From NCBI GenBank assembly GCA_944392295.1, contig CALXWE010000001.1, positions 67,239-131,238 on the forward strand: 64,000 bases of DNA, in the 5' to 3' direction. Origin of the DNA: an uncultured Alphaproteobacteria bacterium (GTDB lineage Bacteria; Pseudomonadota; Alphaproteobacteria; RF32; CAG-239). The position numbers and the translations under genes are program-made. Shown here piece after piece: positions 2,184 through 62,582 of this stretch. Numbering within the stretch: position 1 is the first letter of the stretch; every line of letters begins with the position of its first letter. A model generated the notes under the pieces. The model was not told where the DNA came from. It did no database searches and was given only the letters and a program-made list of their open reading frames with translations.

Positions 2184-2188
<5 letters not shown>
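2111..2188. repeat. ~80-bp direct repeat copy 2, abutting and overlapping 3' end of tRNA-Phe
   Basis: Same sequence as 1897-1977; last 5 nt run into tRNA CCA end. Confidence 0.7.
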
Positions 2189-2259
<71 letters not shown>

Positions 2260-2857: not shown

Positions 2858-3559
2858 TTATACGTGCATCAGTACGCCGATAACCTTTCCTAAAACCTTT
2901 AATTGACCGGCATCTTGCGTGCGATATGCTTTATATTGCTGGTTATCACAGCTTATTTCCGTAGAACCATCCAAAGGTGAGGTTTGTAAACGCTTAATAT
3001 TAACCTCTCGTCCGCTGGCCAATAAATACAACCCGTCGGTCTCCGGCCTTTGGTAAGAAATATCAACCCAAACATAATCCCCCGGATTAATCGACGGTTT
3101 CATGGTATCGCTTACTATTTTAACAATTTTAATGTCTTGCGGATGCGAATAGGTAAAGTCAGCCAAAATGTTCTTGCTTATGTATTGCCTGCCGATAATG
3201 TTGTGCGCAAAATCGGTGCCGTCGATTTGCGGTTTTAATATGTCAATTACTGCCATTTCGCTATCTTCCGATGACGCGGTTTTTACAATTTCGGATATCA
3301 GATTTATATTTTTATCTGTTGAACTTGTTGCTTTTGAGGCAATAATTTCATCATCCATAAGCTCAATGTCGTCAATGCCCAGTAACTGAGCTAAGCGTGC
3401 GCGGTCGATTTCTTTTAAGCGGCGAGGGTAGCCGTATTTTACATATTGCTGCAAATAAGAATCTTTGCGCCCGATTTTGAGCGATAGCTCACGGTAATTA
3501 AAGCCTTTTTGTGCAATTAATTGGTCAATTTTTTTTCTTATATCTTCAATATCTGCCAT
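2858..3559 (-). CDS. phage CI/LexA-like repressor (XRE HTH + S24 peptidase domain)
   Basis: N-terminal HTH region (NYRELSLKIGRKDSYLQQYV), C-terminal S24-like segment with SDTMKP...NIKRL (Ser/Lys dyad). Confidence 0.8.
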   Translation of the reverse strand: MADIEDIRKKIDQLIAQKGFNYRELSLKIGRKDSYLQQYVKYGYPRRLKEIDRARLAQLLGIDDIELMDDEIIASKATSSTDKNINLISEIVKTASSEDSEMAVIDILKPQIDGTDFAHNIIGRQYISKNILADFTYSHPQDIKIVKIVSDTMKPSINPGDYVWVDISYQRPETDGLYLLASGREVNIKRLQTSPLDGSTEISCDNQQYKAYRTQDAGQLKVLGKVIGVLMHV

Positions 3560-3684: not shown

Positions 3685-4080
3685 ATGCAAGAAGTAAGCT
3701 CAATTGAAGATGTCGAATATGAAATTAAAAAAGCCATAAAAGTTTTGCGGGCTTTGCCTAAAGACGGACCATATAAGGCAAAATCGTCATGGCCCAAGTT
3801 TTTGCCGGAAAAACAAGATGAAGAATACCAAAAAATTTGCGTAAACTTTACACCGCTTCCTTCCGAAATTGACGATATGGATATGGTGTTTGAACAATGG
3901 TTTAAAGTCTTGGACAGGCAAGACCGCTTGCTGGTATTTTATAAAAATTTCGGGTATCGCGATAAAGTGTTAATGCGTATTTTTAATAAAGCCCGCAGTT
4001 CGCTGTTTGTACAATATAAAAAAGCTCTGCAGTCTATTCTAGATTACGTACTCGAACAACAAGTCAAACATTGCGCCTAA
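3685..4080 (+). CDS. hypothetical phage protein, candidate small terminase subunit by position
   Basis: ATG with aaggagg RBS; immediately upstream of large terminase; no motif recognised. Confidence 0.3.
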   Translation: MQEVSSIEDVEYEIKKAIKVLRALPKDGPYKAKSSWPKFLPEKQDEEYQKICVNFTPLPSEIDDMDMVFEQWFKVLDRQDRLLVFYKNFGYRDKVLMRIFNKARSSLFVQYKKALQSILDYVLEQQVKHCA

Positions 4081-4095: not shown

Positions 4096-5418
4096 ATGCC
4101 CAAACACCCATCTCTTATTTTTTATGAAAAATATTTTCCGCTGCTGGAAATGGATAACGGTAAATACGATACTTTTGTTTTTACCGGCGGTCGCGGCTCA
4201 TTAAAAACCGGGCACGTTTGTCGGGCAGTTTTGGTGGCCATGATGCGCTCTAAAAAACGTGTTGCCGTGTTCAGAGAAACTAAAGTTTCCACCGAAGAAA
4301 GTCTGTATATTGAATTTAAAGAATTAATCAATAGCGAATTTTTTAATCGAGGGTTTGATTATTCTAAAAATAAAATCGTTCATAAATCCACCGGCTCGGA
4401 ATTGTTCTTTATGGGGTTGCAAGATAAAAATCAGAGTGCGCGCGAGAGCCTAAAAGGCTTGGCTCAGGTAGATATTTTATTAATCGACGAAGCCCAAGCC
4501 GTCAGCGCTGCCGTATGGAGCGTACTGTTAAAAACCATACGAAAACAAGGCGTCGTTTTAATTGTTATTTATAACCGTATAGATGACGACTTACCGGTTG
4601 AACAGGCTCTGTTTTTAGATTACGTTTCAATGTCGGCACCCGATAAAACTTATTTTGTAGAGGTAAACTATCCTGAGGTAGAACATTTAGGCGTGTTATC
4701 GGAAAAATTTTTAACCTACGCCGGTTTGATAAAACAAAACAAGCCCGATGAATATGAACGCGATTATCTAAACAAGCCCAAAGGCTCCGATGCCGCCAAA
4801 GTTGTTAAATATTGGTCGCCGGAAAACATTAATCCCGATATTCGCTATTGTGAAGATTTGGATATTTACTGGAGCCTTGATTTTAACGTTAATCCGGCTA
4901 TGTCAACGCTTGCTCATTACGATGGCAAAAAGTTTTTTGTTTTTGATGAATTAGTCTTAAATAATGTTATAACTCAGGACGTCGTCGATGAATTTATGCA
5001 TCGCTATCCGCCGGAAAAGGTTAGGGGAATAATTCAAATTTGCGGTGATGCTTCGGGCAAATATCGCAAGACCCAAAGCCGGTTTTCTGATTATGCCATT
5101 ATTGTTAATACGTTGGCTAAAAACGGGTATCATTATAAACTTAATTTACGTCCATTTAATCCGCCGATTATTGCCAGGGTTAATGCGTTTAACAAACAAG
5201 TTTTAACTGATGACGGTAACAGAAATGTACTGGTTCATCCAAGGTGTAAGTGGCTTATTTATAATATGAAAAATCTGCGTTACAAAGAAGGAACGAATAT
5301 CATCGATGAGGCAACGCCTTCGCAAATTGCTGATGATGACGCCAAACTTTACTTAGGACATATCTTTGATGCCGTAAGCTATATGGTAGAATTTTTTAAA
5401 CCAGTCGTTAAAGAATGA
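4096..5418 (+). CDS. terL: phage terminase large subunit (PBSX/Terminase_3-like)
   Basis: Walker A-like FTGGRGSLKTGH, Walker B VDILLIDEAQ, C-terminal nuclease-like region. Confidence 0.85.
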   Translation: MPKHPSLIFYEKYFPLLEMDNGKYDTFVFTGGRGSLKTGHVCRAVLVAMMRSKKRVAVFRETKVSTEESLYIEFKELINSEFFNRGFDYSKNKIVHKSTGSELFFMGLQDKNQSARESLKGLAQVDILLIDEAQAVSAAVWSVLLKTIRKQGVVLIVIYNRIDDDLPVEQALFLDYVSMSAPDKTYFVEVNYPEVEHLGVLSEKFLTYAGLIKQNKPDEYERDYLNKPKGSDAAKVVKYWSPENINPDIRYCEDLDIYWSLDFNVNPAMSTLAHYDGKKFFVFDELVLNNVITQDVVDEFMHRYPPEKVRGIIQICGDASGKYRKTQSRFSDYAIIVNTLAKNGYHYKLNLRPFNPPIIARVNAFNKQVLTDDGNRNVLVHPRCKWLIYNMKNLRYKEGTNIIDEATPSQIADDDAKLYLGHIFDAVSYMVEFFKPVVKE

Positions 5419-5473
5419 CTATTTTACTAAACTAATAAGAGAGTTACTTAAGCTTGAAAGGGGTGCTCTGTTT

Positions 5474-5660
5474 GATGACAAAACCGAACAAAATCGAACA
5501 TTTTCGAACATTTTTGCGCTGGACATTTTTTGTAAAAAAAGGCTATAAAAAAGCTATAATCGTAAGATCGAGTGCAAGCCATAAACTCTCACGATTATAT
5601 TTAAACTTAAACTGAAATTTTAACAACCAATACCGAAGCTCATAACTTCGGTATTTTTTT
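5474..5660 (+). repeat. cassette element copy A: 3 cgaaca iterons, promoter, stem-loop, intrinsic terminator
   Basis: Shares ...cgaacattttcgaacatttttgcgctggacattttttgtaaaaaaaggctataaaaaagctataatcgtaagatcgagtgcaagccataaactctcacgattat...taccgaagctcataacttcggtattttttt with copies C and D. Confidence 0.8.
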
Positions 5661-5749
5661 ACAAGAAGTAAAGCCCATGTTTTATTATGGGCTTTACAAA
5701 AATAAACAAAAGTTGTACTGTGTGAAAAAATCAACCGAGGAGGCTGTCA

Positions 5750-6658
5750 ATGAAAATAATTAAATATCTGATTGCGGAACTTTTGTTTATTATCTTAATT
5801 ATCAATAATTACGGTATGTTTGTTAATATGGATAAAGCCGATTTGGTTTGCATTAACGAGGGTATCAACAATTATCTGCAATTTGATTGGAATAGTTATT
5901 TTCATTGGTTCCGAGATGATATAAATACCGTTTGTCGTTTTGATACACAAAGCTTATTTATGTATTTTTGGTTTGTTCTTACTTATTATACCTTATTTAA
6001 AATCATTGCTCTCAAAATCTTCCCTGATAGCTTAAAAATAAAATTTTTGATTCCCGAAACTTTGGTTTACATATTGTCTTTCGGCATACGAATTGTTTGG
6101 ACCGATGGTTTTGAAGTAACATCCGGAAGTCTGCAAAACGCCGCTCTCGGTTTGATGTATATGTTCTCACCGTTCATTGTATATGTTATTATTGTATATT
6201 TAGCATACCACATGGCTGAGACCTATGGCAGGAAAATGCCGCAATCCGTTAAAAACTTATTTTTAAGTATTGGCTTGTTTATTTTTTCGGTAGTGGCATT
6301 TCCGCCGATATGGGCAATACTTTACAGCTTGTTGCTGCTGCCTTTTATTTTATGGTTTATTTACCTTTACATACCCCGACTATTCGTAAAATCTGTTGCC
6401 GATAAACAAACAACTCCTGCCTCTTATTTTTGTCTTAGGTTGCCTGCCGGAATCATCTTGTTTTTGGGATGTATCAGTTATGAAATTTTATTTTCAAGAC
6501 AGTATTACCGAGCTCTGTCTATAGAGGAGTTTTTCGCCTATTATATTTTGTGTACAACCTTTATCCGATTGACCTATTATCTGTTAATTGCTTTAATTTG
6601 GAATCCCAAAGCCGTTAAAAATTTTGTAAATAAACTACATTTAACTCAAAATACCTAG
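5750..6658 (+). CDS. integral membrane protein (multi-TM), cargo gene
   Basis: RBS gaggagg; many hydrophobic segments. Confidence 0.5.
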   Translation: MKIIKYLIAELLFIILIINNYGMFVNMDKADLVCINEGINNYLQFDWNSYFHWFRDDINTVCRFDTQSLFMYFWFVLTYYTLFKIIALKIFPDSLKIKFLIPETLVYILSFGIRIVWTDGFEVTSGSLQNAALGLMYMFSPFIVYVIIVYLAYHMAETYGRKMPQSVKNLFLSIGLFIFSVVAFPPIWAILYSLLLLPFILWFIYLYIPRLFVKSVADKQTTPASYFCLRLPAGIILFLGCISYEILFSRQYYRALSIEEFFAYYILCTTFIRLTYYLLIALIWNPKAVKNFVNKLHLTQNT

Positions 6659-6669
6659 AGCTTGAATAT

Positions 6670-7104
6670 TTATTCAAGCTCTACCACAAAGGTTGCAACC
6701 CCCAATCGTTGCCAATTTTCATCATAGGAATATTCTTTTATGTAGCGGGCGGTACATATCCCTTTGGCATCTTTAAGGAAACATTCTTCCGGTACATATC
6801 TGTAAAACTCGTCACTGCCGAAAATTTGACATTTTAAAATTATATAATCATTTTCATTTTCCAACAGCTGACAAGTATTAGTCGTCCAACCGTCCTTATA
6901 ATTATCGCCGTCTTTATGAATAACCGAGTTGGAGTAGCGTAGGGAATTGGGTGTTAAAAATGTTTCACGCGAATTAGACGATAAAGGAGATAATTGTTTA
7001 TAAAACAACGGATTTACAAATTTTTCTTCCTTCTCACTTCCGGCCCGCAATGAACATCCGACAATAAATAACACGCTTAATATTACCCATAAACTTTTTT
7101 TCAT
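6670..7104 (-). CDS. lipoprotein, Cys-containing, cargo gene
   Basis: Signal peptide with lipobox FIVGC. Confidence 0.5.
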   Translation of the reverse strand: MKKSLWVILSVLFIVGCSLRAGSEKEEKFVNPLFYKQLSPLSSNSRETFLTPNSLRYSNSVIHKDGDNYKDGWTTNTCQLLENENDYIILKCQIFGSDEFYRYVPEECFLKDAKGICTARYIKEYSYDENWQRLGVATFVVELE

Positions 7105-7168
7105 AATCTTATTTCCTTATACTTAATTTCCATAAATAATAATTAATCCCGGCTATTCCGTCAAAGAT

Positions 7169-7657
7169 TTACTTGTAATTTTTAAGAAAGCCATAAACGG
7201 CAAGTTCCTGTTTAATTTGCAATAATAGGGTATTAAGGTATTGCAAAACAATTTCTTTGGATTTTGCCATATTTTCCTGTTCGCATACAGTGCCGGCAGG
7301 AGTTGCATATTTATTTAAGCAATAAACAACCCCATAGGCCGATAATGTGGCTTTAACATAGTTGTTATAACTTGCCATATTACGCTCAAGATTATGATTA
7401 TAAAAAGTTTTCATAACCTTATCGGCAAGAGTGTTGGCACAATCAAATTGTCGAGAGCTTTCGGTACATAAAGATAATTCTTTTTGATATTGTGTGATGA
7501 GGGTGTAGTCATCAATTATATCTTTGATTTTTTCTTTACTGCTCCAATCGCTTTTAGCATACACATCATCTATATCAATACCATGGTAAATTTCCGCATT
7601 AACGTTTGTTGCAGATATTAAAAAGCTCAAAAGAGAAATAATGTATATTTTTTTCAT
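7169..7657 (-). CDS. secreted protein with signal peptide, cargo gene
   Basis: AAGGA RBS 8 nt upstream of ATG at 7657; N-terminal signal peptide ...ATNVNA; four Cys. Confidence 0.5.
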   Translation of the reverse strand: MKKIYIISLLSFLISATNVNAEIYHGIDIDDVYAKSDWSSKEKIKDIIDDYTLITQYQKELSLCTESSRQFDCANTLADKVMKTFYNHNLERNMASYNNYVKATLSAYGVVYCLNKYATPAGTVCEQENMAKSKEIVLQYLNTLLLQIKQELAVYGFLKNYK

Positions 7658-7751
7658 AATCAATTATCCTTATGCATAAAACCGATGAAACAAGTTTAGA
7701 TTTAATCCATAATATAAGCAACAACTTTTATAGTTAAAGCACAAGAAAATA

Positions 7752-7840
7752 ATATTTTAACTTAAACTAAAATTTTAACAACCAATACCGAAGCTCTTTG
7801 CTTCGGTATTTTTTTTATTTAAAAGAAAGGAAAATAAATC
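7752..7840 (+). repeat. cassette element copy B (3' part only: terminator hairpin + conserved RBS leader)
   Basis: ttaacttaaactaaaattttaacaaccaataccgaagctctttgcttcggtattttttttatttaaaagaaaggaaaataaatcATG. Confidence 0.75.
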
Positions 7841-8428
7841 ATGACAAATAAAAAATATAATCCATTTGCGGATATGTATAACTTTAATGCTAACAGTAAC
7901 AACTGGGTACAAAAGCTAGGATATAATGCGGATTTTTATAATAATCCGCTGGGCTATAACAGCTCACCCATCCCCAGACCTTATGATAACACAACAAAAT
8001 TAAATAATAATGTTCCTAAATATTGGGACAGTGCAAATGAGGGTAGAAAAGTTCTTGACTATGTAATACAAAAAGAAGGGAATATTACTCCTGAATCACA
8101 AGATTTTTTTGCATATGGAAAATCTGGTCTGACTGGAGGATTAAACACGATACAGAATTATATGTCTTTAAGAGATAAAAGATATACAGATAAGTACAAG
8201 CACGCACTTATAAATTGTAAGGCAGCTCAATCCGGAAAAGGAGGATACGATATTGTAAAATTTATTTCTGATTTAAAAGAAAAGAGTGATGTTAAAAATG
8301 GTCGCAATACTATTGACAGTAGTTTAAGTGATAACTATGCTAACGAAATAGGACGGCTGTTAGGAACAAAATATCGCAAAGGAGATTGTGATGCTCTCAT
8401 CCAACAATACATTAACAAAAATTGGTAA
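7841..8428 (+). CDS. MTNK-family protein with shared N-terminal module and unique C-terminal domain (candidate toxin/effector)
   Basis: First ~52 aa near-identical to 11801-13084 protein (MTNKKYNPFADMYNFNANSNNWVQKLGYNADFYNNPLGYNSSP.PRPYDNTT). Confidence 0.6.
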   Translation: MTNKKYNPFADMYNFNANSNNWVQKLGYNADFYNNPLGYNSSPIPRPYDNTTKLNNNVPKYWDSANEGRKVLDYVIQKEGNITPESQDFFAYGKSGLTGGLNTIQNYMSLRDKRYTDKYKHALINCKAAQSGKGGYDIVKFISDLKEKSDVKNGRNTIDSSLSDNYANEIGRLLGTKYRKGDCDALIQQYINKNW

Positions 8429-8557
8429 GTGGCTTATTATATCTTTTGTTTTCGTTGCGGGGCTTGTGCTTACTGCCCTTATTAGTTTGAGCTGTGTCTA
8501 CATCTTCAGCTTGTAACAGGTCTATAAAATTGTTTGAGTAAAACAAGGAGATTGCTG

Positions 8558-9349
8558 ATGAAAAAGGCTCTGTACATTCTTTTAGAGGTCTTGTTTATAT
8601 TTTTGATTGTAAATCATCGGGAATATTGGCTTGTTGCCAACCAAGCAGTCCGGGTAAACGGAGTTTATGTATGGCTTATCTTAACGGCTTATTCAGTCCT
8701 TAAAACATACGGAGCCTTTAATTGGAAACTTACCATAAAGCCTGTTTTTGTAATATGTGAACTATTGTTGTTTATATTATCAGGTTGCGTTTTGGGATTA
8801 TACACCCAAAGTTTGCCAGTAACCGCACAAATATACACTGTATTTTTACCCTTAATTTTTTATGTTTTGGTATTGGGGATGGGATGGTATATACTGCTTA
8901 AAAACAACCCGACAATAAACGATTTTACCACCCATTGCCAACAGCATTCCAAACGTTATCTTGCTTTGATTTGGTTTTTGGCTGCCTTGTTTATATGTCC
9001 GCCGATTTTAACCGTTGTTTACAGCAAGGTATGGTTTGTGCTGATACTGATGGGAATATATGTGTTTTTGCCGTATAAAATAAGTACTTTGTTGCTCAAA
9101 GATTTATCGTTACACAAATTCTTTTCATTAGGAAAAGTAATTCCCGTAATGTTGATAATTTTTGTTCAGATAAATCTGGAAGCGATACTCAGTGGCTTTT
9201 GTTTTTACGGATCTTGGTTGGATGCTTATAGGGTGGTAAAATACATAATAATTGTTGCCGTTTTGCGATTTATTATTTGCGGCTTAATATTATGCGTATT
9301 AGATTACAAACAAATTAAAGGATTATTTATAACAGCCAAAACAAAATAA
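8558..9349 (+). CDS. integral membrane protein (candidate immunity protein)
   Basis: ATG with AAGGAG RBS; multiple TM helices. Confidence 0.5.
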   Translation: MKKALYILLEVLFIFLIVNHREYWLVANQAVRVNGVYVWLILTAYSVLKTYGAFNWKLTIKPVFVICELLLFILSGCVLGLYTQSLPVTAQIYTVFLPLIFYVLVLGMGWYILLKNNPTINDFTTHCQQHSKRYLALIWFLAALFICPPILTVVYSKVWFVLILMGIYVFLPYKISTLLLKDLSLHKFFSLGKVIPVMLIIFVQINLEAILSGFCFYGSWLDAYRVVKYIIIVAVLRFIICGLILCVLDYKQIKGLFITAKTK

Positions 9350-9377
9350 ATAAGGTTAATCATATAAGAGGTGATTT

Positions 9378-9914
9378 ATGGAAGAAGGAACACAAAAGCC
9401 AGAAGAAGATGACGCATTGTTCAAAGAGGATGCCAAGACCATATATTTTTCATTTGAAGGGGTATTCGGTCGCATACAATTTTTTATAGTAGCGGTTACC
9501 CTCGGTGGTTTTATGGATTTAATGAGTACGGGAAATAATATAGTACTCGTGGTCATAGGCACAGCCATAGTATTTTATGCGATGCTGGCAGCGATTCAAA
9601 AACGCAGTCGTGATATGAATATTGGCGGTAGTTTGTTTATTTTATTGTATTCTCTGAGTTTTCCGATAAGTCGGATGATGTTATACGGTAGGGATACTGG
9701 AAATCCGATAATTATCCATAACGACATAATTCGGAAAAGTTTTTACGGAGCGTTAATAGGATATTTGATAGTATCATTACTTTTGGTGCTTATGCCCGGA
9801 GCAAAGAAGAAGGATATGAGCAAAAGGAGTCCGTTATTAAAAAATCCTCCGCTGTATTTTTTAATATGCGTAATAATTTATGCCATAGTCGCCTATTTTA
9901 TCAGAGATTTATAG
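9378..9914 (+). CDS. DUF805-like inner membrane protein
   Basis: YFSFEGVFGRIQFF motif resembles DUF805 signature; several TM segments; terminator hairpin ccaaagagggagg...ctccctcttt downstream. Confidence 0.45.
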   Translation: MEEGTQKPEEDDALFKEDAKTIYFSFEGVFGRIQFFIVAVTLGGFMDLMSTGNNIVLVVIGTAIVFYAMLAAIQKRSRDMNIGGSLFILLYSLSFPISRMMLYGRDTGNPIIIHNDIIRKSFYGALIGYLIVSLLLVLMPGAKKKDMSKRSPLLKNPPLYFLICVIIYAIVAYFIRDL

Positions 9915-9984
9915 CTTGTAAGAGATTACCAAAGAGGGAGGATAAAAACTCCCTCTTTAGTATTTTAAAAGCAAATAAGTGAGA

Positions 9985-10273
9985 GGGAAACCGCTCTCAA
10001 AAAGGACAAAAACGGCGTATTTAATGACAAAACCGAACATTTCCGAACATTTTCGAACAAAAATGAACAATTCCGAACAAAATCGAACATTTTCGAACAT
10101 TTTTGTGCTGGACATTTTTTGTAAAAAAAGGCTATAAAAAAGCTATAATCGTAAGATCGAGTGCAAGCCATAAACTCTCACGATTATATTTTAACTTAAA
10201 CTAAAATTTTAACAACAGATACCGAAGCTCATAACTTCGGTATTTTTTTATTTAAAAGAAAGGAAAATAAATC
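9985..10273 (+). repeat. cassette element copy C (full: 7 iterons, promoter, stem-loop, terminator, RBS leader)
   Basis: Near-identical to 11505-11800. Confidence 0.85.
10145..10259 (+). ncRNA. candidate short terminated leader transcript (stem-loop ataatcgt...acgattat + intrinsic terminator taccgaagctcataacttcggta-T7)
   Basis: Promoter-like TGGACA/TTGTAA with TATAAA/TATAAT upstream; strong terminator ~110 nt downstream and 14 nt before next ATG. Confidence 0.35.
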
Positions 10274-10531
10274 ATGACAAATAAATTAATCACTGTAGCT
10301 GGTAAATATGCAGCTAAAAAAGTTCGTAATAAAACCGTTAATAAGGCCATGGAAAAAATAAGCGAGCCATATGAAAAATTCAAAAAAGAGGTTTTCAGTA
10401 TAAAACCTCTAAATGTTGGGGAAAGAGAAACCATAAAATGTTTACAAAATCGTCATAACACCTTAGACTATTGCAAGAATATAGGAAACAAGGCAAGGAA
10501 AGCTTATCAAAAATCCGGAAAATATAGGTAA
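10274..10531 (+). CDS. small basic protein starting with MTNK leader
   Basis: Shares cassette RBS and first 4 codons with other MTNK genes. Confidence 0.45.
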   Translation: MTNKLITVAGKYAAKKVRNKTVNKAMEKISEPYEKFKKEVFSIKPLNVGERETIKCLQNRHNTLDYCKNIGNKARKAYQKSGKYR

Positions 10532-10595
10532 CTTTTTATTAAAACAAAAGTACTCATCAATACGGACAATATGCACTGTGTAACGGGAAGATAAT

Positions 10596-10856
10596 ATGAA
10601 AAAGATAGTACTGTTTATAATTGGTCTTATGTGTATACCGCCGATATTGGGGTATTTGACAACATATGTGAGTAACAATCCTGAATGTGAAGTATACACC
10701 GGATTTTGGGGAGTGCTGTATCTATTTATTTATATTCTTTTTCCTTTGTTATATAAAGGGAAAATAAAACAAGCTATGAATAGATATGCTTTTTATGCCT
10801 TGTTGTACGGCATTTTGTTTCTGATAATAAATATATTACTTATTTGTTTTAATTAG
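10596..10856 (+). CDS. small membrane protein
   Basis: Three hydrophobic segments in 86 aa. Confidence 0.4.
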   Translation: MKKIVLFIIGLMCIPPILGYLTTYVSNNPECEVYTGFWGVLYLFIYILFPLLYKGKIKQAMNRYAFYALLYGILFLIINILLICFN

Positions 10857-10906
10857 ATGTAATGAAGCTGTAAAAAGCAGCAAGATTATAATGGTAAATA
10901 GAAAGG

Positions 10907-11416
10907 ATGGCAGAAATGAAGAATATAATATTTTTACTGCTGGCAGTACTAATGCCGACATTGAGTTTAGCAGCAGAAGAAAAGTCAACATTTACATATG
11001 AAGCAGAAAAATGTTCCGGTGAAGAAGATGTATTTATACGAGGTTTAGAGGAAGAATTAGCTAATTGTAAAATTCAAATGCCGGATAATCCATCTACGGC
11101 AGATATGAATAATGCCACTTATGATTTTGGCGATTGTTGTATTGCTGTAGCCAATAAACTTTTTGATAGAAATTACAAAAAGTATAATGAGCAGGTAAAA
11201 CAGGATTTTGATGCACTTGTCAAAGCATTTTATGCAAATGCTCATGATATGGTTCAACATAGCGATTTTGGACTTTTAAGAGGAGGAACTATGTACAATA
11301 CGGAAGCCATTGCTACGGGGGCTTTTTGGATTAGAGATGTGGTAAAAGAATACCTTTATCAAGCACGAATGGAATGCGATGATAAGGCAGGATTTGATTC
11401 ACTGGATATAGAATAG
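10907..11416 (+). CDS. secreted protein with signal peptide
   Basis: MAEMKNIIFLLLAVLMPTLSLAAEEK signal peptide; Cys-containing. Confidence 0.45.
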   Translation: MAEMKNIIFLLLAVLMPTLSLAAEEKSTFTYEAEKCSGEEDVFIRGLEEELANCKIQMPDNPSTADMNNATYDFGDCCIAVANKLFDRNYKKYNEQVKQDFDALVKAFYANAHDMVQHSDFGLLRGGTMYNTEAIATGAFWIRDVVKEYLYQARMECDDKAGFDSLDIE

Positions 11417-11504
11417 ATTATTTTAATCAAACAATGAAAAAGAGGCTTATAAAAGTCTCTTTTTTGTGCTTTTAAAGAAAGGAAAAATAAGTTAGGCTAG
11501 ATAA

Positions 11505-11800
11505 AAGGATAGGGAAATTGTTTCTAAAACGGACAAAAACGGCGTATTTAATGACAAAACCGAACATTTCCGAACATTTTCGAACAAAAATGAACAATTC
11601 CGAACAAAATCGAACATTTTCGAACATTTTTGTGCTGGACATTTTTTGTAAAAAAAGGCTATAAAAAAGCTATAATCGTAAGATCGAGTGCAAGCCATAA
11701 ACTCTCACGATTATATTTTAACTTAAACTAAAATTTTAACAACAGATACCGAAGCTCATAACTTCGGTATTTTTTTATTTAAAAGAAAGGAAAATAAATC
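11505..11800 (+). repeat. cassette element copy D (full)
   Basis: Near-identical to copy C, including 7 cgaaca iterons at ~11558-11632. Confidence 0.85.
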
Positions 11801-13084
11801 ATGACAAATAAAAAATATAATCCATTTGCGGATATGTATAACTTTAATGCTAACAGTAACAACTGGGTACAAAAGCTAGGATATAATGCGGATTTTTATA
11901 ATAATCCGCTGGGCTACAACAGCTCACCCACTCCCAGACCTTATGACAACACAACTGTCTTTGGTGCAGATGATGACAATGAAGTTGTAAGTGGGTTTAA
12001 GCCTCAAACCCCTCGGACAACAAGCTTAAATAACGGATTTAATGTTAATAAGCAGCAACCGTCCATGGGTAATATGTCAAGCTTTAACCTTAAAGGAAAT
12101 AATAACGCTTCTGACTTTAATACGGGCAGTAGCAACTGGGTGCAAAGGTTAGGGTATAATGCGGACTTTTATAATAATCCGCTGGGCTATAACAGCTCGC
12201 CAACTCCCAGACCTTATGACAACACAACTGTCTCTGGTATAAATAACAGCTTTAATATTAATAACCGACAGCCTTCTTTAAGCGGATTGGAAAGTTACAA
12301 TCAACCTCAAAAGAAGCAGTATACTAACCCTAAAGTAAAACCCTTTACTTCATGGGATATTGCTTTATCAGCTCTTGAAGGATTTGGAGAGGGAGCAGCC
12401 GGAGGAACTGAAAATATTATGAATGGACTAACTTTGGGAGGATATGGGATTGTTAGTGATAAATTAGGGTTAGGTATGAAAGAAAGAAAAACAAAATTAC
12501 AACTTTCCTCAGATTATGCTGGTGTAGGAGATGTTTTTAATGTAACCAATAAAGGGACATATTTAATTGGAAATGGATTGTTATTATACCTATTGCGATC
12601 AAAAGGGATACCGGCTATTGGACAAGCTTATAATATATACAATATTTTTAATGGAAGTCGTAACCTTGCAAACCAATTGCACAGAGGTAGCAATTTTAAG
12701 GATATTTACATGGGGAAGATTGATAAAAATAAATTTAATCAAATTAATGATATTAGACTAGGTTTAGGCGAGGCTCCTATTTTATCCAGACAAGTAAAAA
12801 TCCCCAAGCAAAATGTACAACATATTTGGGATAGGCGAATTAATATTGGACAATCTAAACCCAGAGAAGTTGCAAATTATGTGAAAGATAGCATTTTTAG
12901 TAAAGATAGTCAGGTGTTTCCAGGTAATGTCTCTCGTAACCAGGTGATTATTAAAACGGGTGATAAACACCCCAGTATGAGTGTTATATCAAAAGATGAT
13001 ATATTTGATGGTATATCGGTAAGAAGTTCTATGCAGAAAGATTTGCCAAGCCTATTAAAAAAATATCCCGATTTAAAATACTAA
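11801..13084 (+). CDS. MTNK-family protein, N-terminal module present twice, Gly-rich linker, unique C-terminal domain (candidate toxin/effector)
   Basis: Residues 1-52 and ~107-150 repeat SNNWVQ(K/R)LGYNADFYNNPLGYNSSPTPRPYDNTTV; C-terminal ~250 aa unrelated to 7841 protein. Confidence 0.6.
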   Translation: MTNKKYNPFADMYNFNANSNNWVQKLGYNADFYNNPLGYNSSPTPRPYDNTTVFGADDDNEVVSGFKPQTPRTTSLNNGFNVNKQQPSMGNMSSFNLKGNNNASDFNTGSSNWVQRLGYNADFYNNPLGYNSSPTPRPYDNTTVSGINNSFNINNRQPSLSGLESYNQPQKKQYTNPKVKPFTSWDIALSALEGFGEGAAGGTENIMNGLTLGGYGIVSDKLGLGMKERKTKLQLSSDYAGVGDVFNVTNKGTYLIGNGLLLYLLRSKGIPAIGQAYNIYNIFNGSRNLANQLHRGSNFKDIYMGKIDKNKFNQINDIRLGLGEAPILSRQVKIPKQNVQHIWDRRINIGQSKPREVANYVKDSIFSKDSQVFPGNVSRNQVIIKTGDKHPSMSVISKDDIFDGISVRSSMQKDLPSLLKKYPDLKY

Positions 13085-13404
13085 AGTGGCTTTGGATGGA
13101 CGGTGTTTCCCATCATTACAACACAAATACGTCGTGTTCTGCAGTTGCACCGATTTTCTGCTCTTCAAAGCCACTACATTTATGTAGTATTTGTCACTAC
13201 ATAAAATATGCATTAGGTTGACAAATAACCTAATAACATTGATATGTTAAGCTAAAAACAACAATTTGTCAATCATATTGATTATCTGTATTTTTTAATA
13301 TGCGTAATAGTTTATTCCATAGTCGCCTACTTTATCAGAGATTTATAGTCTGTAAGAGATTACCAAAGAGGGGGTAAAAGCTCCCTCTTTGGTATTTTAA
13401 AAGC

Positions 13405-13515
13405 AGACAAGGGATAGGGAAATCGCTCTCAAAACGGACAAAAACGTCTTTAATTTTAACAACCAATACCGAAGCTCATAACTTCGGTATTTTTTTATAA
13501 TAAGAAAGGAAAATA
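13405..13515 (+). repeat. cassette element copy E (deletion derivative: upstream part joined directly to terminator + RBS)
   Basis: gggaaatcgctctcaaaacggacaaaaacg...ttttaacaaccaataccgaagctcataacttcggtattttttt; upstream 13290-13400 duplicates 9850-9960 (3' end of 9378-9914 gene). Confidence 0.75.
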
Positions 13516-15294
13516 ATGTTCGCATATACTCTTGAAAAAGAAAGCTTTATGTCAACGGGAAATCCCGATGATAAGCGGGCAGTAGTTCAAGATGTGGTGG
13601 ATTTATTCACATCTTGGGATACTGTTCGTACTAAACAAAAAAATATTGCCGATAAGTTGCATTCGGAAATCTATCTGGATGACCGAAAAAAAACTTATGT
13701 CCCGGAAGATGACGAATGGAAATCGGATATCCATCTTAATAAAATCTATTCGTTATTCCAAACACATCAGGCCTACATTTGGGATAATATCTATTCTAAT
13801 GTGGAAAATATGTTTGATGTTGAAGGAATTGATGATCTTTCGGCACAAACGGCTTTGTTGCAAAAACAAAAACTGGTTAATACCTTTTATAATATCGGTA
13901 TTCAACGCAAGCTGGATACCGCTATTGAGCATTTAGACAGTGTCGGTGAAATTTGTTTGTTTATCGGTTGGCAAAAAAAATATAAACAAATCCGCCGTCG
14001 TTTGGATAAATTCAGCTCCTCTGCCGATAAGCCCTTGCTTACTCAAGGCTTGTTCGGGGTGTTTAATCAGGAAATTTATAACGGAGCCGATGTTGAGGCC
14101 ATTAACCCGCTCAATTTGGTATTTGACCCCAGGGTTAATCCTGACGATAAGGAAAAATGGAATGCCTGCGGTAAAATTATTAAATCATGGGAAACATATC
14201 AGTCGGTAGCTTCCAATAAATTGTATAATCTTAAAAAAGAAGAGCTTGATGATTTGCATAAAATGTTAAACTCTCCTTCCAAAGATGAAGATCGTTCGGA
14301 AACAGATAAAACCGATGATGTGGTTGATAGCGATAGGGTTGAGGTTTTACAATATTGGGGAGATTATGTTACCCCAAAAGGCGATGTTTTAAAAAACTGG
14401 CATATCGTAGTTATCGGTCGTAAATATCTGGCGGTGTTTGAACCTAATCGCTGGGTAATTAACCCGATTATCAATATGGCTTTATTTAGGGATATCAACA
14501 GTAAGCGAGGTATTCCCGAATTATGGTCCATTTACGATATATGTAAGGAACAGGAAAATAAAGTAAACTTACAAAATGATGCTCAATCACTTAACCTAAA
14601 TCCTCCGGCCTATGCTCCGGAGGGTTTTTTTAAGGAGGAAAAAGTAAAACTCTTCCCCGGTAAACAAGTGGAATACAAACAGGGTCTTGAAGATCCCGGA
14701 GCAATCATCAAAATGCAGTTTCCGTTGTTCAGTAATGAAAATATTATTCAGTATTATGACAATACGGCTTCAAGCGTAAGCGGTATTTTTCCCAATATGC
14801 AGGGACAACAGGAAGTAAGCAAAGCTACGGCCACCGAAATAAGCATTAAGGTTCAGGGACAAACCACGCGTTTGGGTAAAACTTTGGATACCATCAAGCA
14901 AAATGTTATTGTCCCGATGGTGCAAAAAGTTGCCGAACTTGAAGCTAATATGAAATTCGGTGATGAGGTTTTAAAGCTTAACATTTTGGGGTATCCGGTT
15001 ACCAAAACCATTGATGATGTGGTGCGTCAGGGCAATTATGAATATCGTTATACCGATAATACCGGTATTCAGAAAAAGCTTAACACCAATCAAACGCTTA
15101 TTCAGATTTTTACGCAAATCTGGAATGATGAAAGCGTCCCCTTAAACAAACTGCAAATTGTTAAAGAAGTACTGCGTAATGCCGGCATAGAAAATACCGA
15201 AAAGTTTTTTCTAAGCCAAAATCAAATTCCGGCAGCCAATCAAAATACAGCGGCGGCTGGTGTCAACAATAATCTTTTACCCGTTCAAAAGTAG
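13516..15294 (+). CDS. putative portal protein
   Basis: 592 aa, first structural gene after terminase/cargo, followed by scaffold and capsid genes. Confidence 0.55.
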   Translation: MFAYTLEKESFMSTGNPDDKRAVVQDVVDLFTSWDTVRTKQKNIADKLHSEIYLDDRKKTYVPEDDEWKSDIHLNKIYSLFQTHQAYIWDNIYSNVENMFDVEGIDDLSAQTALLQKQKLVNTFYNIGIQRKLDTAIEHLDSVGEICLFIGWQKKYKQIRRRLDKFSSSADKPLLTQGLFGVFNQEIYNGADVEAINPLNLVFDPRVNPDDKEKWNACGKIIKSWETYQSVASNKLYNLKKEELDDLHKMLNSPSKDEDRSETDKTDDVVDSDRVEVLQYWGDYVTPKGDVLKNWHIVVIGRKYLAVFEPNRWVINPIINMALFRDINSKRGIPELWSIYDICKEQENKVNLQNDAQSLNLNPPAYAPEGFFKEEKVKLFPGKQVEYKQGLEDPGAIIKMQFPLFSNENIIQYYDNTASSVSGIFPNMQGQQEVSKATATEISIKVQGQTTRLGKTLDTIKQNVIVPMVQKVAELEANMKFGDEVLKLNILGYPVTKTIDDVVRQGNYEYRYTDNTGIQKKLNTNQTLIQIFTQIWNDESVPLNKLQIVKEVLRNAGIENTEKFFLSQNQIPAANQNTAAAGVNNNLLPVQK

Positions 15295-15509: not shown

Positions 15510-16499
15510 ATGACAATTAAAACAAAATCAACACCTTCACAGCGTTTGACGGATAACTCCTCTGATATATTTGTTGCGGATACCTCTCTAAAAGAGCCTG
15601 AAGCAGTATATCAAGAGCCCGTAAGCGATGCTATGGAAGCTGATGTTAATGATAAAGCCTTGGAAGATGGCGGTCTTATCTTTGGTAAGTTTAAGACCAT
15701 GGAAGAGGCTCAAAAAGGCTATAAAGAGGCGGAACGAGCCATCACGCGAGCCGCCGATTTGGAAAAAGAACTGCAAAACTACCAGTATCTTTCCAAAGCT
15801 TATGAAGAAGATGCCATAGCTAGGCAGAACGGTTATTCCGATCGTTTGGAAATGGCACTTAATCATGATGTAAAGCAACATGAACTTGACAGTTATGCCT
15901 TGGCGGCCAGCCATACATTACCGTATCAGGCTCAGTTGGAAGTTGCTCAATTGATAAATACGTGCCGCCTTGGTGGTACGGAAAAGGAATTCAACCTTTT
16001 ACGGCAGTATTTTCCGCCGCAAGTGGTGGCATTAGTTTCCGAAGATGCGGCTTTATACAAAAATTCGCGTCAGGGCGAGTTTGATAATATCCGCAGTAAC
16101 GATAAAGCCATTCGTTATGCTCGGAAATTGCATGAATTCCGCAATCAAAACGAGAGTTGGTTTGATTCTCCCTTAAAAGAAGACCTTATAAATCAGGCTC
16201 TGGAAGTCTCGGACGGCAGAGTAGATTTAAACGGGCTTAAAAAAATGGCCGATGCCGTAGTGGAAGAAGCTCTCAAAAAATATCAAACCGGTCAGGATAC
16301 GGCGTATCAAAATGCTCTGATGCAAGACAGCTTGCAAACTCCGGGCAATGATAACACGCGTATCAAAAACAAAAAATGGCTTACCAAGGATGAGTATTAC
16401 AAACTCACTCCGGCACAGGAAGCCGAAAAATATGATTTAATCGTGGAACAGGTTTTGCTTGAAAAACAAGGCAAGTTACCGCGTATGTTAACCAAATAA
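15510..16499 (+). CDS. putative scaffolding protein
   Basis: Acidic, helical, low-complexity; directly upstream of capsid gene. Confidence 0.5.
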   Translation: MTIKTKSTPSQRLTDNSSDIFVADTSLKEPEAVYQEPVSDAMEADVNDKALEDGGLIFGKFKTMEEAQKGYKEAERAITRAADLEKELQNYQYLSKAYEEDAIARQNGYSDRLEMALNHDVKQHELDSYALAASHTLPYQAQLEVAQLINTCRLGGTEKEFNLLRQYFPPQVVALVSEDAALYKNSRQGEFDNIRSNDKAIRYARKLHEFRNQNESWFDSPLKEDLINQALEVSDGRVDLNGLKKMADAVVEEALKKYQTGQDTAYQNALMQDSLQTPGNDNTRIKNKKWLTKDEYYKLTPAQEAEKYDLIVEQVLLEKQGKLPRMLTK

Positions 16500-18492: not shown

Positions 18493-20082
18493 ATGCTAAA
18501 CACACTGTTTATTGATAATTTTCGGGGAATTCGCAAATTTAATCCGGTGGCAGATTTGATATCAAGCGGAGTGGTTTCGGCTGTTAACTGTCAAAATGTG
18601 GAGCTTACCAATACCGAACACAGTAAAAATTTAGCCATTTTTACGACCAAAGGCAACAAAGCGGTTAAAGATATCGGGCAAAAAGTTGTTGGACAGTTTG
18701 AAAGTATTCAAAACGGGACATCTTATTGGTTTATATATGCCACGGACGATACAAGAGGATATCTTTATGCTTTAGGAGCAGATAATGAGCTGACGCTTTT
18801 AGATGTAAGTTTATCGGTAAGTGATGATTGTAACGGTATTACCATTGCCCAAGGTTATAATGACTGGTTTGTGTTTACCAACGGTGTGGATGATTATTTG
18901 GGAGTTTGTATGTCGCAAGCATCCCCCGAAGACCGTATTAAATTTTTGAATGCAACCGATGCCGAAGGGCGTGATATCAGAGGCTTAGGGCTTGAAGTTC
19001 AGGACGGAAGATTGGTAACCTTTTGCCAAAATCGGGTTCATTGGTCGGGACAATCCAACATTTTTGACTGGATATCAAGCGATGAAGAGTTGCTTACGGC
19101 TCCGGCATATCAGGAGTTTGACCGTGATGTAACAGCTATTATTCTTTATAATGATATGTTGATAGCCTTTACCGATGAGTATTCCACTTATTTTAAGGGC
19201 AATCCCGGAGATGCAAGTACCTTCACCCGAGGCGGAGCTTCTGGCGGAGGGTGTCCGTCGTTTCGTTCGGTAATCAAGTTTGATAACAAGCTTTTTTATT
19301 ACGATAACAAAGCCAAAAATGTTTTTGCTTATTACTTAATGGACAGCGGACAAACGCGTCCGAGTGAAGGGCTTGCCAATAATGTCATTTCCTATTTTGA
19401 AGAAATTGATGAAAGTAAATTAAATAAAATAGAAATGGTAAGTTATATCCACGGTAATAAAAGCGAGATATGGCTTAAATTTCCCTCAACAGAGAGGAAT
19501 GTAGTTTTAATTTACGATTATTTGAACGGCGAATGGTGTGAACGTGTTGCTCAAGCCGATATTCACGGATTAAGCCTGATAAAGGGCGGATTATATTCAC
19601 TGTCCGGAACTAAGGTCTTAAAAGAATATATCGGTTCTACATTTGATGGGGAATATATACCTTCGGAATATAAGACCAACATCATCAACTTGCAAAGCGA
19701 CAGTAATATCAAAGTGCCGAAAATGCCTTTGATTTTAACCTTGGATTTTGACTGTGAAAACGACTTTTATATAGAGTTTATCTACGATGATATGCCTAAA
19801 AAAAGCCGCACATTTCATATTGTTAAAATGATGAAAGGTTACTTGATTTGGGCAAACTCGGCAGCAGATGAAAAAGGCGGTCTTTGGAGTTTAGATGCAT
19901 CAGATGAAAACGGCGGCATGTGGGTAAGTTCGGATAAAAACACCGTAATGTTTAACTTGGCGGGAGTTTTACCGTTTAAGCAGTTGCAGATACGAATTTT
20001 TACCAAAGACAGTCCGCAAGAGTTTGCCGTTAAACGGCTGGAGTTCAAACGCGTCGGCTTAAAAACCAAAAGTCTGGGTTAA
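18493..20082 (+). CDS. phage tail protein (large)
   Basis: 529 aa, RBS ggaggagg, position in tail module. Confidence 0.4.
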   Translation: MLNTLFIDNFRGIRKFNPVADLISSGVVSAVNCQNVELTNTEHSKNLAIFTTKGNKAVKDIGQKVVGQFESIQNGTSYWFIYATDDTRGYLYALGADNELTLLDVSLSVSDDCNGITIAQGYNDWFVFTNGVDDYLGVCMSQASPEDRIKFLNATDAEGRDIRGLGLEVQDGRLVTFCQNRVHWSGQSNIFDWISSDEELLTAPAYQEFDRDVTAIILYNDMLIAFTDEYSTYFKGNPGDASTFTRGGASGGGCPSFRSVIKFDNKLFYYDNKAKNVFAYYLMDSGQTRPSEGLANNVISYFEEIDESKLNKIEMVSYIHGNKSEIWLKFPSTERNVVLIYDYLNGEWCERVAQADIHGLSLIKGGLYSLSGTKVLKEYIGSTFDGEYIPSEYKTNIINLQSDSNIKVPKMPLILTLDFDCENDFYIEFIYDDMPKKSRTFHIVKMMKGYLIWANSAADEKGGLWSLDASDENGGMWVSSDKNTVMFNLAGVLPFKQLQIRIFTKDSPQEFAVKRLEFKRVGLKTKSLG

Positions 20083-33240: not shown

Positions 33241-33325
33241 CTAAAACCTCCGAGTTTTGGGTTGTTAAAGGGCTTTAAACGAAATCATAAACCGTTTTTT
33301 TTTTTTGCAATCAAAAAGAGTCTTT
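33241..33325 (-). promoter_or_regulatory. conserved pilin upstream element (promoter/5'UTR) with poly-T tract
   Basis: ctaaaacctccgagttttgggttgttaaagggctttaaacgaaatcataaaccg-T12-gcaa shared by 6 paralogs. Confidence 0.6.
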
Positions 33326-33984: not shown

Positions 33985-34066
33985 CTAAAACCTCCGAGTT
34001 TTGGGTTGTTAAAGGGCTTTAAACGAAATCATAAACCGTTTTTTTTTTTTGCAACTTTAAAAGGAA
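33985..34066 (-). promoter_or_regulatory. conserved pilin upstream element
   Basis: Same 80-bp element, T12. Confidence 0.6.
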
Positions 34067-46055: not shown

Positions 46056-46136
46056 TTAAAAACCTCCAAAGTTTGGGTTGTTAAAGGCATTTAAACGAAA
46101 TCATAAACCGTTTTTTTTTTTTGCAACTTTAAAAGG
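46056..46136 (-). promoter_or_regulatory. conserved pilin upstream element
   Basis: T12 tract. Confidence 0.6.
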
Positions 46137-54957: not shown

Positions 54958-55040
54958 CTAAAACCTCCAAAGTTTTATTTGTTAAAGGACTTTAAACGAA
55001 ATCATAAACTGTTTTTTTTTTTTGCAACTTTAAAAGGAGC
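54958..55040 (-). promoter_or_regulatory. conserved pilin upstream element (T13 tract)
   Basis: Same element. Confidence 0.6.
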
Positions 55041-62517: not shown

Positions 62518-62582
62518 GCTAAAGGTTGACATTTATAATTTAGCGCTTAAGATTTTTAAAAATTAATTTTAAGGAGAAAGTT

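Follow-up and report, generated by a model that had tools for sequence, protein, structure and literature searches.

We analysed an island of cargo genes in a 64-kb stretch of DNA (the window) from an uncultured, low-GC alphaproteobacterium. The island separates the large terminase gene (terL) from the portal gene of a prophage element of ~25 kb that lies between accB and the UDP-glucose dehydrogenase gene (ugd). The left part of the element contains a gene for a protein of 414 amino acids (aa; function not assigned), a 94-aa gene, a PLD-type nuclease gene, a tRNA-Phe gene and genes for an S24 (cI-like) repressor, a DUF6362 protein and TerL. To the right of the island are podovirus-like structural genes, comprising portal, scaffold-like, major capsid and a few tail-like genes, and a lysozyme gene. 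Five copies (A to E) of a repeated module are interspersed with the cargo; each full copy has boxes, a promoter-like core, a palindrome and a terminator hairpin, mostly followed by a ribosome-binding site (RBS). Positions in the window are as follows.

4096-5418, plus strand: large terminase gene (TerL), left border of the island; matches PF04466 (Terminase_3) and terminase PHROGs
5460-5661, plus strand: module copy A, full, with three CGAACA boxes (5485-5510), TGGACA (5520-5525) and two palindrome arms (5555-5567, 5587-5599)
5629-5655, plus strand: terminator hairpin of copy A, followed by a T-run
5668-5697, no strand assigned: second hairpin after copy A, in place of the common RBS leader; terminator-like score on the minus strand
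5750-6658, plus strand: 302-aa protein with multiple transmembrane segments, a distant paralogue of the 271-aa protein; immunity-like, without an adjacent effector
6670-7104, minus strand: 144-aa lipoprotein (lipobox IVGC), orphan immunity-like
7169-7663, minus strand: 164-aa secreted protein (Sec signal), orphan immunity-like; its family is convergent to MTNK effectors in other variants
7749-7840, plus strand: module copy B, a 3' fragment with AU-rich linker, hairpin (7784-7810), T-run and RBS
7841-8428, plus strand: 195-aa effector, MTNK N-terminal module and serum-amyloid-A (SAA)-like domain; matches PF00277 and SAA chains in PDB
8534-9349, plus strand: 271-aa protein (called as 263 aa) with multiple transmembrane segments, candidate immunity protein to the SAA-type effector
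9378-9914, plus strand: 178-aa DUF805-like membrane protein; 3' end of the gene duplicated at 13286-13348
9981-10273, plus strand: module copy C, full, with all module parts and seven boxes
10274-10531, plus strand: 85-aa basic protein; only the first 4 codons in common with the effectors
10596-10856, plus strand: 86-aa protein with three transmembrane segments
10907-11416, plus strand: 169-aa secreted protein (Sec signal), probable orphan immunity gene
11508-11800, plus strand: module copy D, full, 97% identical to copy C
11801-13084, plus strand: 427-aa effector in which the MTNK N-terminal repeat occurs twice, ahead of a linker module and, at the C terminus, a BECR-fold (RelE/colicin D/CdiA-CT-like) domain
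13286-13515, plus strand: copy E, comprising a 3' remnant of the 178-aa gene, a terminator (13367-13390) and a module without boxes, promoter or palindrome
13516-15294, plus strand: portal gene, right border of the island; matches portal/adaptor PHROGs

The TerL protein of the window is encoded, with 100% identity, on 22 metagenome contigs, and alignment of TerL retrieved 46 related loci, many with human gut metagenome in their record names. In at least 18 related loci (TerL identity 54–77%) the gap between terL and portal is 3–18 nucleotides (nt), including the closest relative by TerL (L043; 77% identity, 6-nt gap), and insertions of 0.5–2.7 kb occur in just a few of the 46. The G+C content of the island is 0.30–0.36, compared with 0.39–0.41 in terL and the structural genes. 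The short gaps in relatives and the deviant G+C content indicate that the junction was ancestrally tight and that the 8.1 kb are added DNA; by this comparison, the block is an insertion into the terL–portal spacer. A megablast search of positions 3.5–16.5 kb against INPHARED phages returned zero matches. A preliminary description of this DNA had named the terminase and portal genes correctly, as the Terminase_3 and PHROG matches show, and its view that cargo splits a junction that is closed elsewhere is borne out by the adjacency in relatives, a check that it had proposed. Its count of 11 open reading frames (ORFs) in the island becomes 10 plausible ORFs on recounting.

The repeat was traced by its hairpin, ATACCGAAGCTCATAACTTCGGTAT (25 nt, up to 3 mismatches allowed), which starts at 5630, 7785, 10219, 11746 and 13466, always on the plus strand. 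No copy was found outside 5.4–13.5 kb in the rest of the window, and 100 dinucleotide shuffles gave 0 matches (chance expectation 0). Over 300 nt, copy C (9981-10280) matches copy D (11508-11807) at 97% identity; for copy A (5392-5691) the in-register identity is 70%, and all five copies have an 85-nt core in common. The five-fold repeat of the preliminary description is therefore real, with coordinates good to within a few bases, and the near-identity of C and D was rightly noted. The proposed unit of ~250 bp describes A, C and D (full copies, ~250–300 nt) and not B and E, which are 3' fragments. Likewise, a terminator does close every full copy, as had been claimed, but the common RBS leader said to follow it is replaced in copy A by the second hairpin, in a segment that also follows copy B' in variant L002. 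Copy B contains a minus-strand promoter-like site (7778->7749) directed at the 164-aa gene. The module part of copy E (~13448-13515) consists of the linker, the hairpin (13465-13491) and a variant RBS leader that runs to the portal ATG. The 160 nt before it (13286-13446) are a second occurrence of 9852-10014, a stretch that takes in the final codons of the 178-aa gene, and copy E is thus a C-like copy with an internal deletion of ~185 nt.

Aligning 21 distinct copies, taken from the window and from other samples, gave the anatomy of the module, which is stated here in copy C coordinates. Seven CGAACA hexamers (one of them TGAACA) stand at exact 10-nt spacing at 10034-10099, and modules generally have 3–7 CGRACA boxes. 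After the last box, a 9-nt gap leads to the -35-like TGGACA (10109-10114), followed 18 nt later by TATAAA (10133-10138) and, 5 nt further, by TATAAT (10144-10149). This promoter-like core, TGGACA-N18-TATAAA-N5-TATAAT, is invariant across full copies. Palindrome arms of 13 nt (10144-10156, TATAATCGTRAGA; 10176-10188, TCTCACGATTATA) cover the -10 and enclose a variable interior of 19 nt. The AU-rich linker (10189-10216), almost invariant in the 21 copies, holds a minus-strand promoter-like site and leads to an intrinsic terminator hairpin (10217-10245) with a T7 run, a Shine–Dalgarno (SD) sequence AAGGA (~10260-10264) and the ATG at 10274. The module as a unit includes the RBS and, in true family members, also the first ~50 codons.

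Within the arrays the box hexamer is invariant, the 4-nt spacers vary and full promoter-bearing copies have one box type per genome: CGAACA in the window, L001, L002, L015 and L023, and CGGACA throughout the full copies of the KS metagenome-assembled genome (MAG) and L021. These properties argue for protein-binding sites rather than mere DNA curvature, and the boxes are probably bound by one common regulator. Their uniformity within a genome points to gene conversion or co-evolution with such a regulator. Boxes occur in a third context, upstream of the unrelated 414-aa gene at the left end of the element, again with a 9-nt offset to a -35-like hexamer. This array lies at L001 5044-5099 (~860 nt to the left of window position 1) and L002 4817-4922, and is also found in L004–L006; it has 6 boxes in L001 and L006, 9 in L005 and ~11 in L002 and L004, which suggests a small regulon and a variable-number repeat. 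No box arrays were found outside the loci of this species.

Two island genes encode effector-like proteins with a common 52-aa N terminus (98% identical) that begins with MTNK. The preliminary description had proposed an MTNK family; the 195-aa and 427-aa proteins belong together, but the 85-aa protein has just the first four codons in common with them. The motif YNFNANSxNWVQxLGxNADFYNNPLGYNSSPTPRPY is present in 1–2 copies in family members. The 195-aa protein matches PF00277 at 44.4 bits (cut-off 30.8) and SAA chains in PDB at E = 2e-5. A PDB sequence search with the 427-aa protein was empty; the model of its C-terminal domain matches entries in BFVD annotated as 'large polyvalent protein-associated domain', 'minor capsid protein' and 'PolyVal ADP-ribosyltransferase' (E = 1e-4 to 5e-4), and the C terminus is predicted to be BECR-type RNase-like. 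Among homologues, the MTNK N terminus is joined to a GH108 (PF05838) lysozyme in P0015, P0016, P0019 and P0027, to Tlde1 (PF10908, L,D-transpeptidase-like) in P0026, and in further homologues to several C termini that were matched by no library. An N terminus that is 86–98% identical is therefore combined with SAA, GH108, Tlde1, BECR-like and other C termini, which is the composition expected of polymorphic toxins. A search with the N-terminal module alone returned 5 proteins only, too few for a census of C termini. No signal peptide is predicted on the effectors, and no island protein has a Pfam match to MuF (Phage_Mu_F) or to a portal fusion. Overall, effectors of the family are ~180–500 aa in size, with C termini that are predicted to be peptidoglycan-targeting, membrane-associated (SAA-like) or RNase-like.

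Beside the 427-aa gene, on the minus strand at 13087-13173, the skipping-rope RNA model (RF02924) has a full-length but sub-threshold match (31.6 bits; gathering cut-off 36.7; E = 2.6e-4 in an 8.4-kb search). The match is convergent with the 427-aa gene, lies 3 nt past the end of that gene and shows compensatory changes in its outer stem. An association of skipping-rope RNAs with a particular neighbouring protein has been reported (PMC5737381). No skipping-rope-like RNA was found beside the homologous effectors in L019, L011 and L072.

None of the 302-, 144-, 164-, 271-, 178-, 86- and 169-aa proteins falls in a curated family of the Pfam and PHROG libraries, and no island small protein matches a known immunity family. 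Pairings with effectors in other samples nevertheless make several of them probable immunity proteins. In L021, the gene after that of the GH108 effector P0019 encodes a 166-aa protein with 95% identity to the product of 10907-11416, and a gene for a 151–164-aa protein of the secreted family follows convergently after MTNK effectors in L020 and L021 (GH108 match) and in KS (unassigned). The pair of 195-aa and 271-aa proteins is kept in L002; in KS, the candidate immunity gene stands beside a truncated 3' end of the effector gene. The 144-aa lipoprotein has paralogues at a chromosomal effector locus (37% identity to the 146-aa protein of L015) and a 147-aa tandem paralogue in L002. The immunity-like genes of the window whose effectors are absent from it are orphans in this sense. 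The architecture is that of a polymorphic toxin–immunity array, with putative toxins and putative immunity proteins, which the account of the cargo in the preliminary description had not recognized.

Contigs that encode the 100% identical TerL bear differing islands. L001 and L003 reproduce the order of the window with 99.9% identity over the whole island, and mis-assembly of the window is ruled out by this match. L002 has an additional lipoprotein paralogue and an additional 1.94-kb cassette (121, 199 and 152 aa) that is flanked by two 64–67-nt copies of the linker and hairpin (14133-14196 and 16133-16199). The KS MAG, L020 and L021 have other effectors ahead of the same portal gene, namely MTNK-182, MTNK-240 and GH108 types of 331, 387 and 340 aa; in these variants, the portal gene is preceded by a B-type copy and a convergent secreted-protein gene. 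Some module copies are deleted or truncated among the variants, and many contigs of other samples end inside the module. Whether cassette boundaries coincide with the repeat, as the preliminary description had suggested checking, has a divided answer: several breakpoints lie inside the module and others elsewhere, including within genes. No recombinase or integrase was detectable among the ORFs between accB and ugd. Homologous recombination between module copies, with occasional illegitimate deletions, would be the simplest mechanism; the partners may lie within the island and possibly also at the chromosomal locus.

At that chromosomal locus, module copies with 88–90% identity lie directly upstream of the effector genes P0009 and P0026. 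The gene order, seen in three samples and in the reference MAG, is a VirD4-like coupling protein, a 242-aa gene, ligA, an 88-aa helix-turn-helix (HTH) gene, the module, the effector and immunity-like genes. When 185,579 species were scanned with one genome each, the hairpin occurred only in 'uncultured Alphaproteobacteria bacterium BRZ_KS__bin114', the reference MAG, and there at two loci only (the prophage island and the chromosomal locus). A search of IMG/VR for the exact hairpin gave zero matches. The preliminary description had named a genome-wide REP-like element as the finding that would overturn its reading, and the restriction to two loci speaks against such an element. Since the module precedes effectors at both loci, the repeat can be read as the 5' control region of the effector gene family; on this sequence evidence, it is a conserved 5' regulatory region of polymorphic effectors. 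The same module heads homologous effectors at a non-phage locus and is thus not a dedicated phage cassette-exchange system. Of the modular, moron-style exchange that had been proposed, the cargo insertion, the cassette variation and several breakpoints in the repeat stand; the dedicated phage system does not.

A more distant species has a purely chromosomal array in which effectors (VgrG3-like_C, Tlde1 and GH108) alternate with small proteins. This array (L019) has its own 300-nt repeats (9834-10133, 12126-12425 and 18688-18987; 100% identical), which span upstream regions and effector 5' ends and so follow the same principle with a different sequence. We considered the 88-aa Xre-like HTH protein as a dedicated box-binding regulator and set this candidate aside: its homologues elsewhere occur in housekeeping contexts (clpXP, gidA/mnmE and accA), and no effectors or box arrays were found beside the homologues in other species. 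Upstream of the 88-aa HTH gene is a conserved non-coding element of ~155 nt (L015 9295-9453; also L014, L023, L073, L074 and L077), with a promoter-like site and a terminator at its end. It occurs in several species and varied genomic contexts, has no Rfam match and, by eye, has compensatory helix changes (AACAACAAG/CTTGTTG versus TCACTATG/TATAGTGA); it is a candidate for a new structured RNA or leader.

The element that hosts the island has no recognizable integrase (window 1-24700). Relatives carry RusA, DUF559, DUF6291, Bro-N and a Terminase_2 small subunit between the repressor/DUF6362 genes and terL, and the window element is without them; L033 and L043 are relatives with the Terminase_2 small subunit and RusA/Bro/DUF6291 early genes. 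Between samples, the left arm of the prophage is 98.7–99.8% identical and the flanking host DNA 95.5–97.1%. From portal through p529, the ratio of non-synonymous to synonymous polymorphism (pN/pS) is 0.055–0.08, with pS of ~0.06 and zero indels. In all sampled contigs that extend into the left flank, the element occupies a single chromosomal site. It may be an active phage, or else defective or domesticated, which would bear on how effectors are delivered.

We think it likely that the island is a hypervariable effector–immunity array in the terL–portal spacer of a temperate podovirus-like prophage, and that the repeat is the 5' control module of the effector family. The module would give each cassette its own regulated and insulated transcription unit, and the leader terminator would keep cassette expression off unless it is read through. 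Near-identical copies at two loci would be a substrate for homologous recombination by which cassettes are added, deleted and swapped, leaving orphan immunity genes and truncated module copies behind. The effectors presumably reach competitors, and the neighbouring secreted, lipoprotein and membrane proteins would protect kin. The upstream genes have their own terminators (9931-9958 and 13367-13390), and the portal gene of the window is preceded solely by terminators and the promoter-less copy E. Because the structural genes are under strong purifying selection despite these terminators, transcription must pass the hairpins, from which we infer leaky termination or antitermination. Lambdoid late operons tolerate morons with terminators (PMC3594210).

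Several observations weigh against this explanation. Toxicity, immunity, promoter activity and termination are all predicted from sequence. The MTNK N-terminal module is lineage-restricted and matched no known trafficking domain in Pfam, NCBIfam or PHROG, and the 427-aa effector is without an obvious neighbouring immunity gene. Some breakpoints lie outside the module (for example, KS 3094/3106 are joined within the SAA gene), which means that not all rearrangement is module-mediated, and metagenome assemblies can be chimeric at repeats. A decayed, promoter-less array in the KS MAG (L013 6191) is of the GAACA type, at odds with the CGGACA type of the full copies of that genome. A consensus promoter scan omitted the proposed plus-strand promoter, the -10 of which is TATAAA. 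Across 10 distinct leaders, RNAalifold found no compensatory changes for the palindrome as RNA, and the evidence for RNA structure is accordingly limited to stability.

That stability (predicted leader fold, z = -3.8 compared with shuffles) could also mean that the full modules are small-RNA genes, each for an RNA of ~105 nt with a 5' hairpin, an AU-rich single strand and a terminator hairpin, the shape of Hfq-type small RNAs, with the ORFs separate or reached by read-through. A promoter-like core followed ~100 nt on by a canonical terminator, and a linker almost invariant across 21 distinct copies, would fit. We consider this unlikely: Rfam gave no match to the module at E <= 1 on the island and only chance-level miRNA matches on L015, the compensatory substitutions of a conserved RNA are lacking, an RBS and ATG follow within 25 nt of the T-run in every gene-proximal copy, and all that remains of the module in B- and E-type copies is the linker, hairpin and RBS, which implies that the selected unit includes the translation start. 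A small RNA would in any case be compatible with an attenuator. Hairpins at cassette borders, direct-repeat arrays and the gain and loss of cassettes recall integron-like or site-specific capture, in which the hairpin or box array would be the site of a recombinase. This is very improbable, given that the ORFs between accB and ugd include no such enzyme, the cassettes carry their own promoters, the breakpoints are scattered over linker-hairpin, palindrome, boxes and gene interiors, and the long flanking homology needed for homologous recombination is present. Integrons are defined by IntI, attI and promoterless attC cassettes, and the island has neither a recombinase nor promoterless cassettes nor uniform breakpoints. 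The module is short, hairpin-bearing, intergenic and repeated, as would be a selfish repeat of the repetitive extragenic palindrome or miniature inverted-repeat transposable element type that accumulated here by chance; its copies, however, all have one orientation, always lie 5' of a gene, contain a promoter, RBS and start codon, and are without terminal inverted repeats or target duplications. Instead of being dispersed over unrelated intergenic regions, they form five copies in one 8-kb locus of the window and occupy two loci in the MAG of one species in 185,579, and we give a selfish repeat next to no credence. An assembly artefact, in which the repeat created a chimeric contig, would explain why contigs of other samples often end inside the module, but it is hard to reconcile with L001 and L003, independent assemblies that share the island order at 99.9% identity, and its likelihood is close to negligible.

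The effectors might instead be virion-delivered, with MTNK proteins packaged into the particle or ejected from it to act during DNA entry and their partners providing superinfection exclusion in a phage–phage arms race. In phage T4, Sp blocks the gp5 lysozyme of a superinfecting phage. Further analogues are T4 internal proteins, virion lysozymes and the MuF/PBECR polyvalent proteins, with PBECR domains known in both virion-gene and type IV secretion system (T4SS) contexts (PMC5512222), which would fit both contexts here. The position in the late region between terL and portal, the BFVD matches of the 427-aa C-terminal domain to phage polyvalent, minor capsid and PolyVal models, the homologues of its C-terminal half among structural genes of the related phages L011 and L038, and the purifying selection on the structural genes would all suit such a role. 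Set against these, the same effectors and module stand at a chromosomal locus without virion genes, the array of a related species is entirely chromosomal, neither a MuF nor a portal fusion was detected, most phage relatives are without such genes at the terL–portal junction, and orphan immunity genes with multiple effectors are typical of interbacterial toxin loci. We regard virion delivery as unlikely and rank it second, behind an interbacterial effector role for the MTNK proteins, although packaging or ejection would be compatible with the portal neighbourhood, the polyvalent/PBECR-like fold matches and the homologues among structural genes. Type IV secretion would likewise be compatible, as the chromosomal locus adjoins virD4 and related genomes have VirB8 genes. 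So would colicin-like release at phage lysis, with the low-complexity N terminus as a putative import module. It is decidedly unlikely, but conceivable, that the 'prophage' is a domesticated, particle-producing element that delivers polymorphic effectors. The missing integrase, the missing Terminase_2 small subunit and early genes of relatives, the purifying selection on structural genes and the single chromosomal site in contigs that reach the left flank would be consistent with it. Were this so, the MTNK N-terminal module would be a capsid-targeting or ejection signal, the CGRACA arrays would make up a small regulon for joint activation of the effector cassettes and the 414-aa gene, and module-mediated shuffling would diversify the payload between strains.

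Further features of the element and its surroundings were noted. The tRNA-Phe gene (2184-2259, minus strand) lies beside an 83-nt direct repeat (1895-1977 and 2110-2188; 94% identical), and a search for an att repeat of this gene at the right end of the prophage found none. The DUF6362 gene (3685-4080, plus strand) occupies the usual position of the small terminase subunit, directly upstream of terL, and in another species (L072) a homologue adjoins an effector homologue and a tRNA. Its single-sequence fold had a pLDDT of 41 and the model was unusable, and a PDB sequence search was empty; from its position alone, DUF6362 is a candidate late regulator. Together with the S24 repressor (2858-3559) and host response regulators, it is also a candidate for the protein that would bind the boxes. 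In L011, a related phage with 77% identical TerL, an unrelated 52-nt hairpin repeat, GGAAGATCCCTTGATTTTTGCCTGTCGGCAAAAAAGGGATGAC, occurs at 1176, 2793, 4945, 5011 and 7286, in five intergenic regions of a rearranged late region, including both sides of terL and portal. This phage group may tend to carry repeated hairpins between its genes. A second repeat family in the window, of 237 nt and 68–87% identity (33074-33310, 33818-34054, 45889-46125, 54791-55027 and 57634-57870), spans the upstream region and 5' end of each of five ORFs (~205 aa, minus strand), another paralogous family with a conserved 5' region. Two more copies are in the left flank (L001 814-1431 and 1550-2185), with proteins that have weak matches to a prepilin N-methylation motif. 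Tandem repeats of 54 nt (x7; 62556-63067) and 156 nt (x3–4; 40850-41453) lie inside the ORFs 62583-63734 and 39776-42829, respectively, which probably encode repetitive surface proteins.

The variation between samples offers a view, in natural populations, of how one portable promoter/terminator/RBS module could wire and reshuffle a toxin–immunity arsenal and link a prophage locus with a chromosomal locus. It concerns a new putative effector family, restricted to one lineage and with an unassigned N-terminal module that may serve delivery, in a bacterium whose phage relatives are largely from human-gut metagenomes, and a compact regulatory element that places phased CGRACA boxes and a leader terminator directly ahead of essential phage late genes. 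Such modules also fragment metagenome assemblies at exactly the most variable loci.

Among known systems, polymorphic toxin–immunity loci with orphan cassettes, such as Rhs/CDI orphan arrays (Zhang et al. 2012, PMC3482391), resemble the island in the conserved N terminus with swapped C-terminal domains (in the island, putative toxins), in having small immunity-like genes alongside, in modules that are orphaned or truncated and in the apparent recombination in the conserved 5' part. The island differs from them in its short proteins, in an N-terminal module that fits no described trafficking domain, in a recombining unit that reaches ~250 nt upstream into the promoter and terminator, and in having one locus in a prophage late operon. 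The PeSL units of T4-type phages (Arbiol et al. 2010, PMC2839356; Comeau et al. 2014, PMC4122927) also combine AT-rich upstream sequence and a sigma-70-like promoter with a stem-loop, which can overlap the -10, an SD sequence and a start codon; they stand before variable genes outside the core, and the unit marks the limits of indels that distinguish close relatives, as in the 1.94-kb cassette of L002. The module has this predicted promoter, stem-loop, SD and start composition. It is found in a temperate prophage and the host chromosome, in contrast to the hyperplastic regions of lytic T4-like myoviruses, and it is much longer, with a phased CGRACA array and a second, canonical terminator before the RBS, and heads one gene family.

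Morons (Cumby et al. 2012, PMC3594210) are likewise extra DNA between genes that are adjacent in relatives, with their own promoter-like and terminator motifs and a deviant composition. Here, however, four or five tandem cassettes use one control module, vary between strains and occur also at a chromosomal locus, and the cargo is predicted to be toxin and immunity genes, not a single conversion gene. MuF toxins and PBECR polyvalent proteins (Jamet et al. 2017, PMC5576092; Iyer et al. 2017, PMC5512222) are phage toxin domains beside the portal and terminase genes; they share with the island the BECR-type RNase-like fold predicted for the 427-aa protein and an occurrence in both prophage and T4SS-gene contexts. 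The island proteins have no MuF, portal or LPD domain by Pfam, and their conserved part is a short low-complexity N terminus. The X-Tfe proteins of Xanthomonadales, which are bactericidal T4SS effectors, are defined by a C-terminal XVIPCD signal. As described in two accounts (PMC10933484 and PMC6759196), X-Tfe/X-Tfi pairs are similar in having peptidoglycan-targeting effectors, predicted periplasmic or lipoprotein immunity proteins and a VirD4-type neighbour, and differ in that their consensus sequence is C-terminal whereas the conserved part here is N-terminal. No complete T4SS was seen beside the chromosomal locus.

Judged by the domains that define them, the island is outside all of these named families: it has no MuF domain and no integron integrase, is not of the T4 type and has an N terminus that is not a known trafficking domain. 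Its 'exchange system' is most likely plain homologous recombination. Polymorphic toxin loci with orphans, moron insertion, PeSL shuffling and phage toxins near portal and terminase genes were already known. To these the island adds the putative effector family and its N-terminal module, a common control module that combines phased, genome-specific boxes with a leader terminator, the residence of this module in both a prophage late operon and a chromosomal locus, and insertion exactly in the terL–portal spacer.

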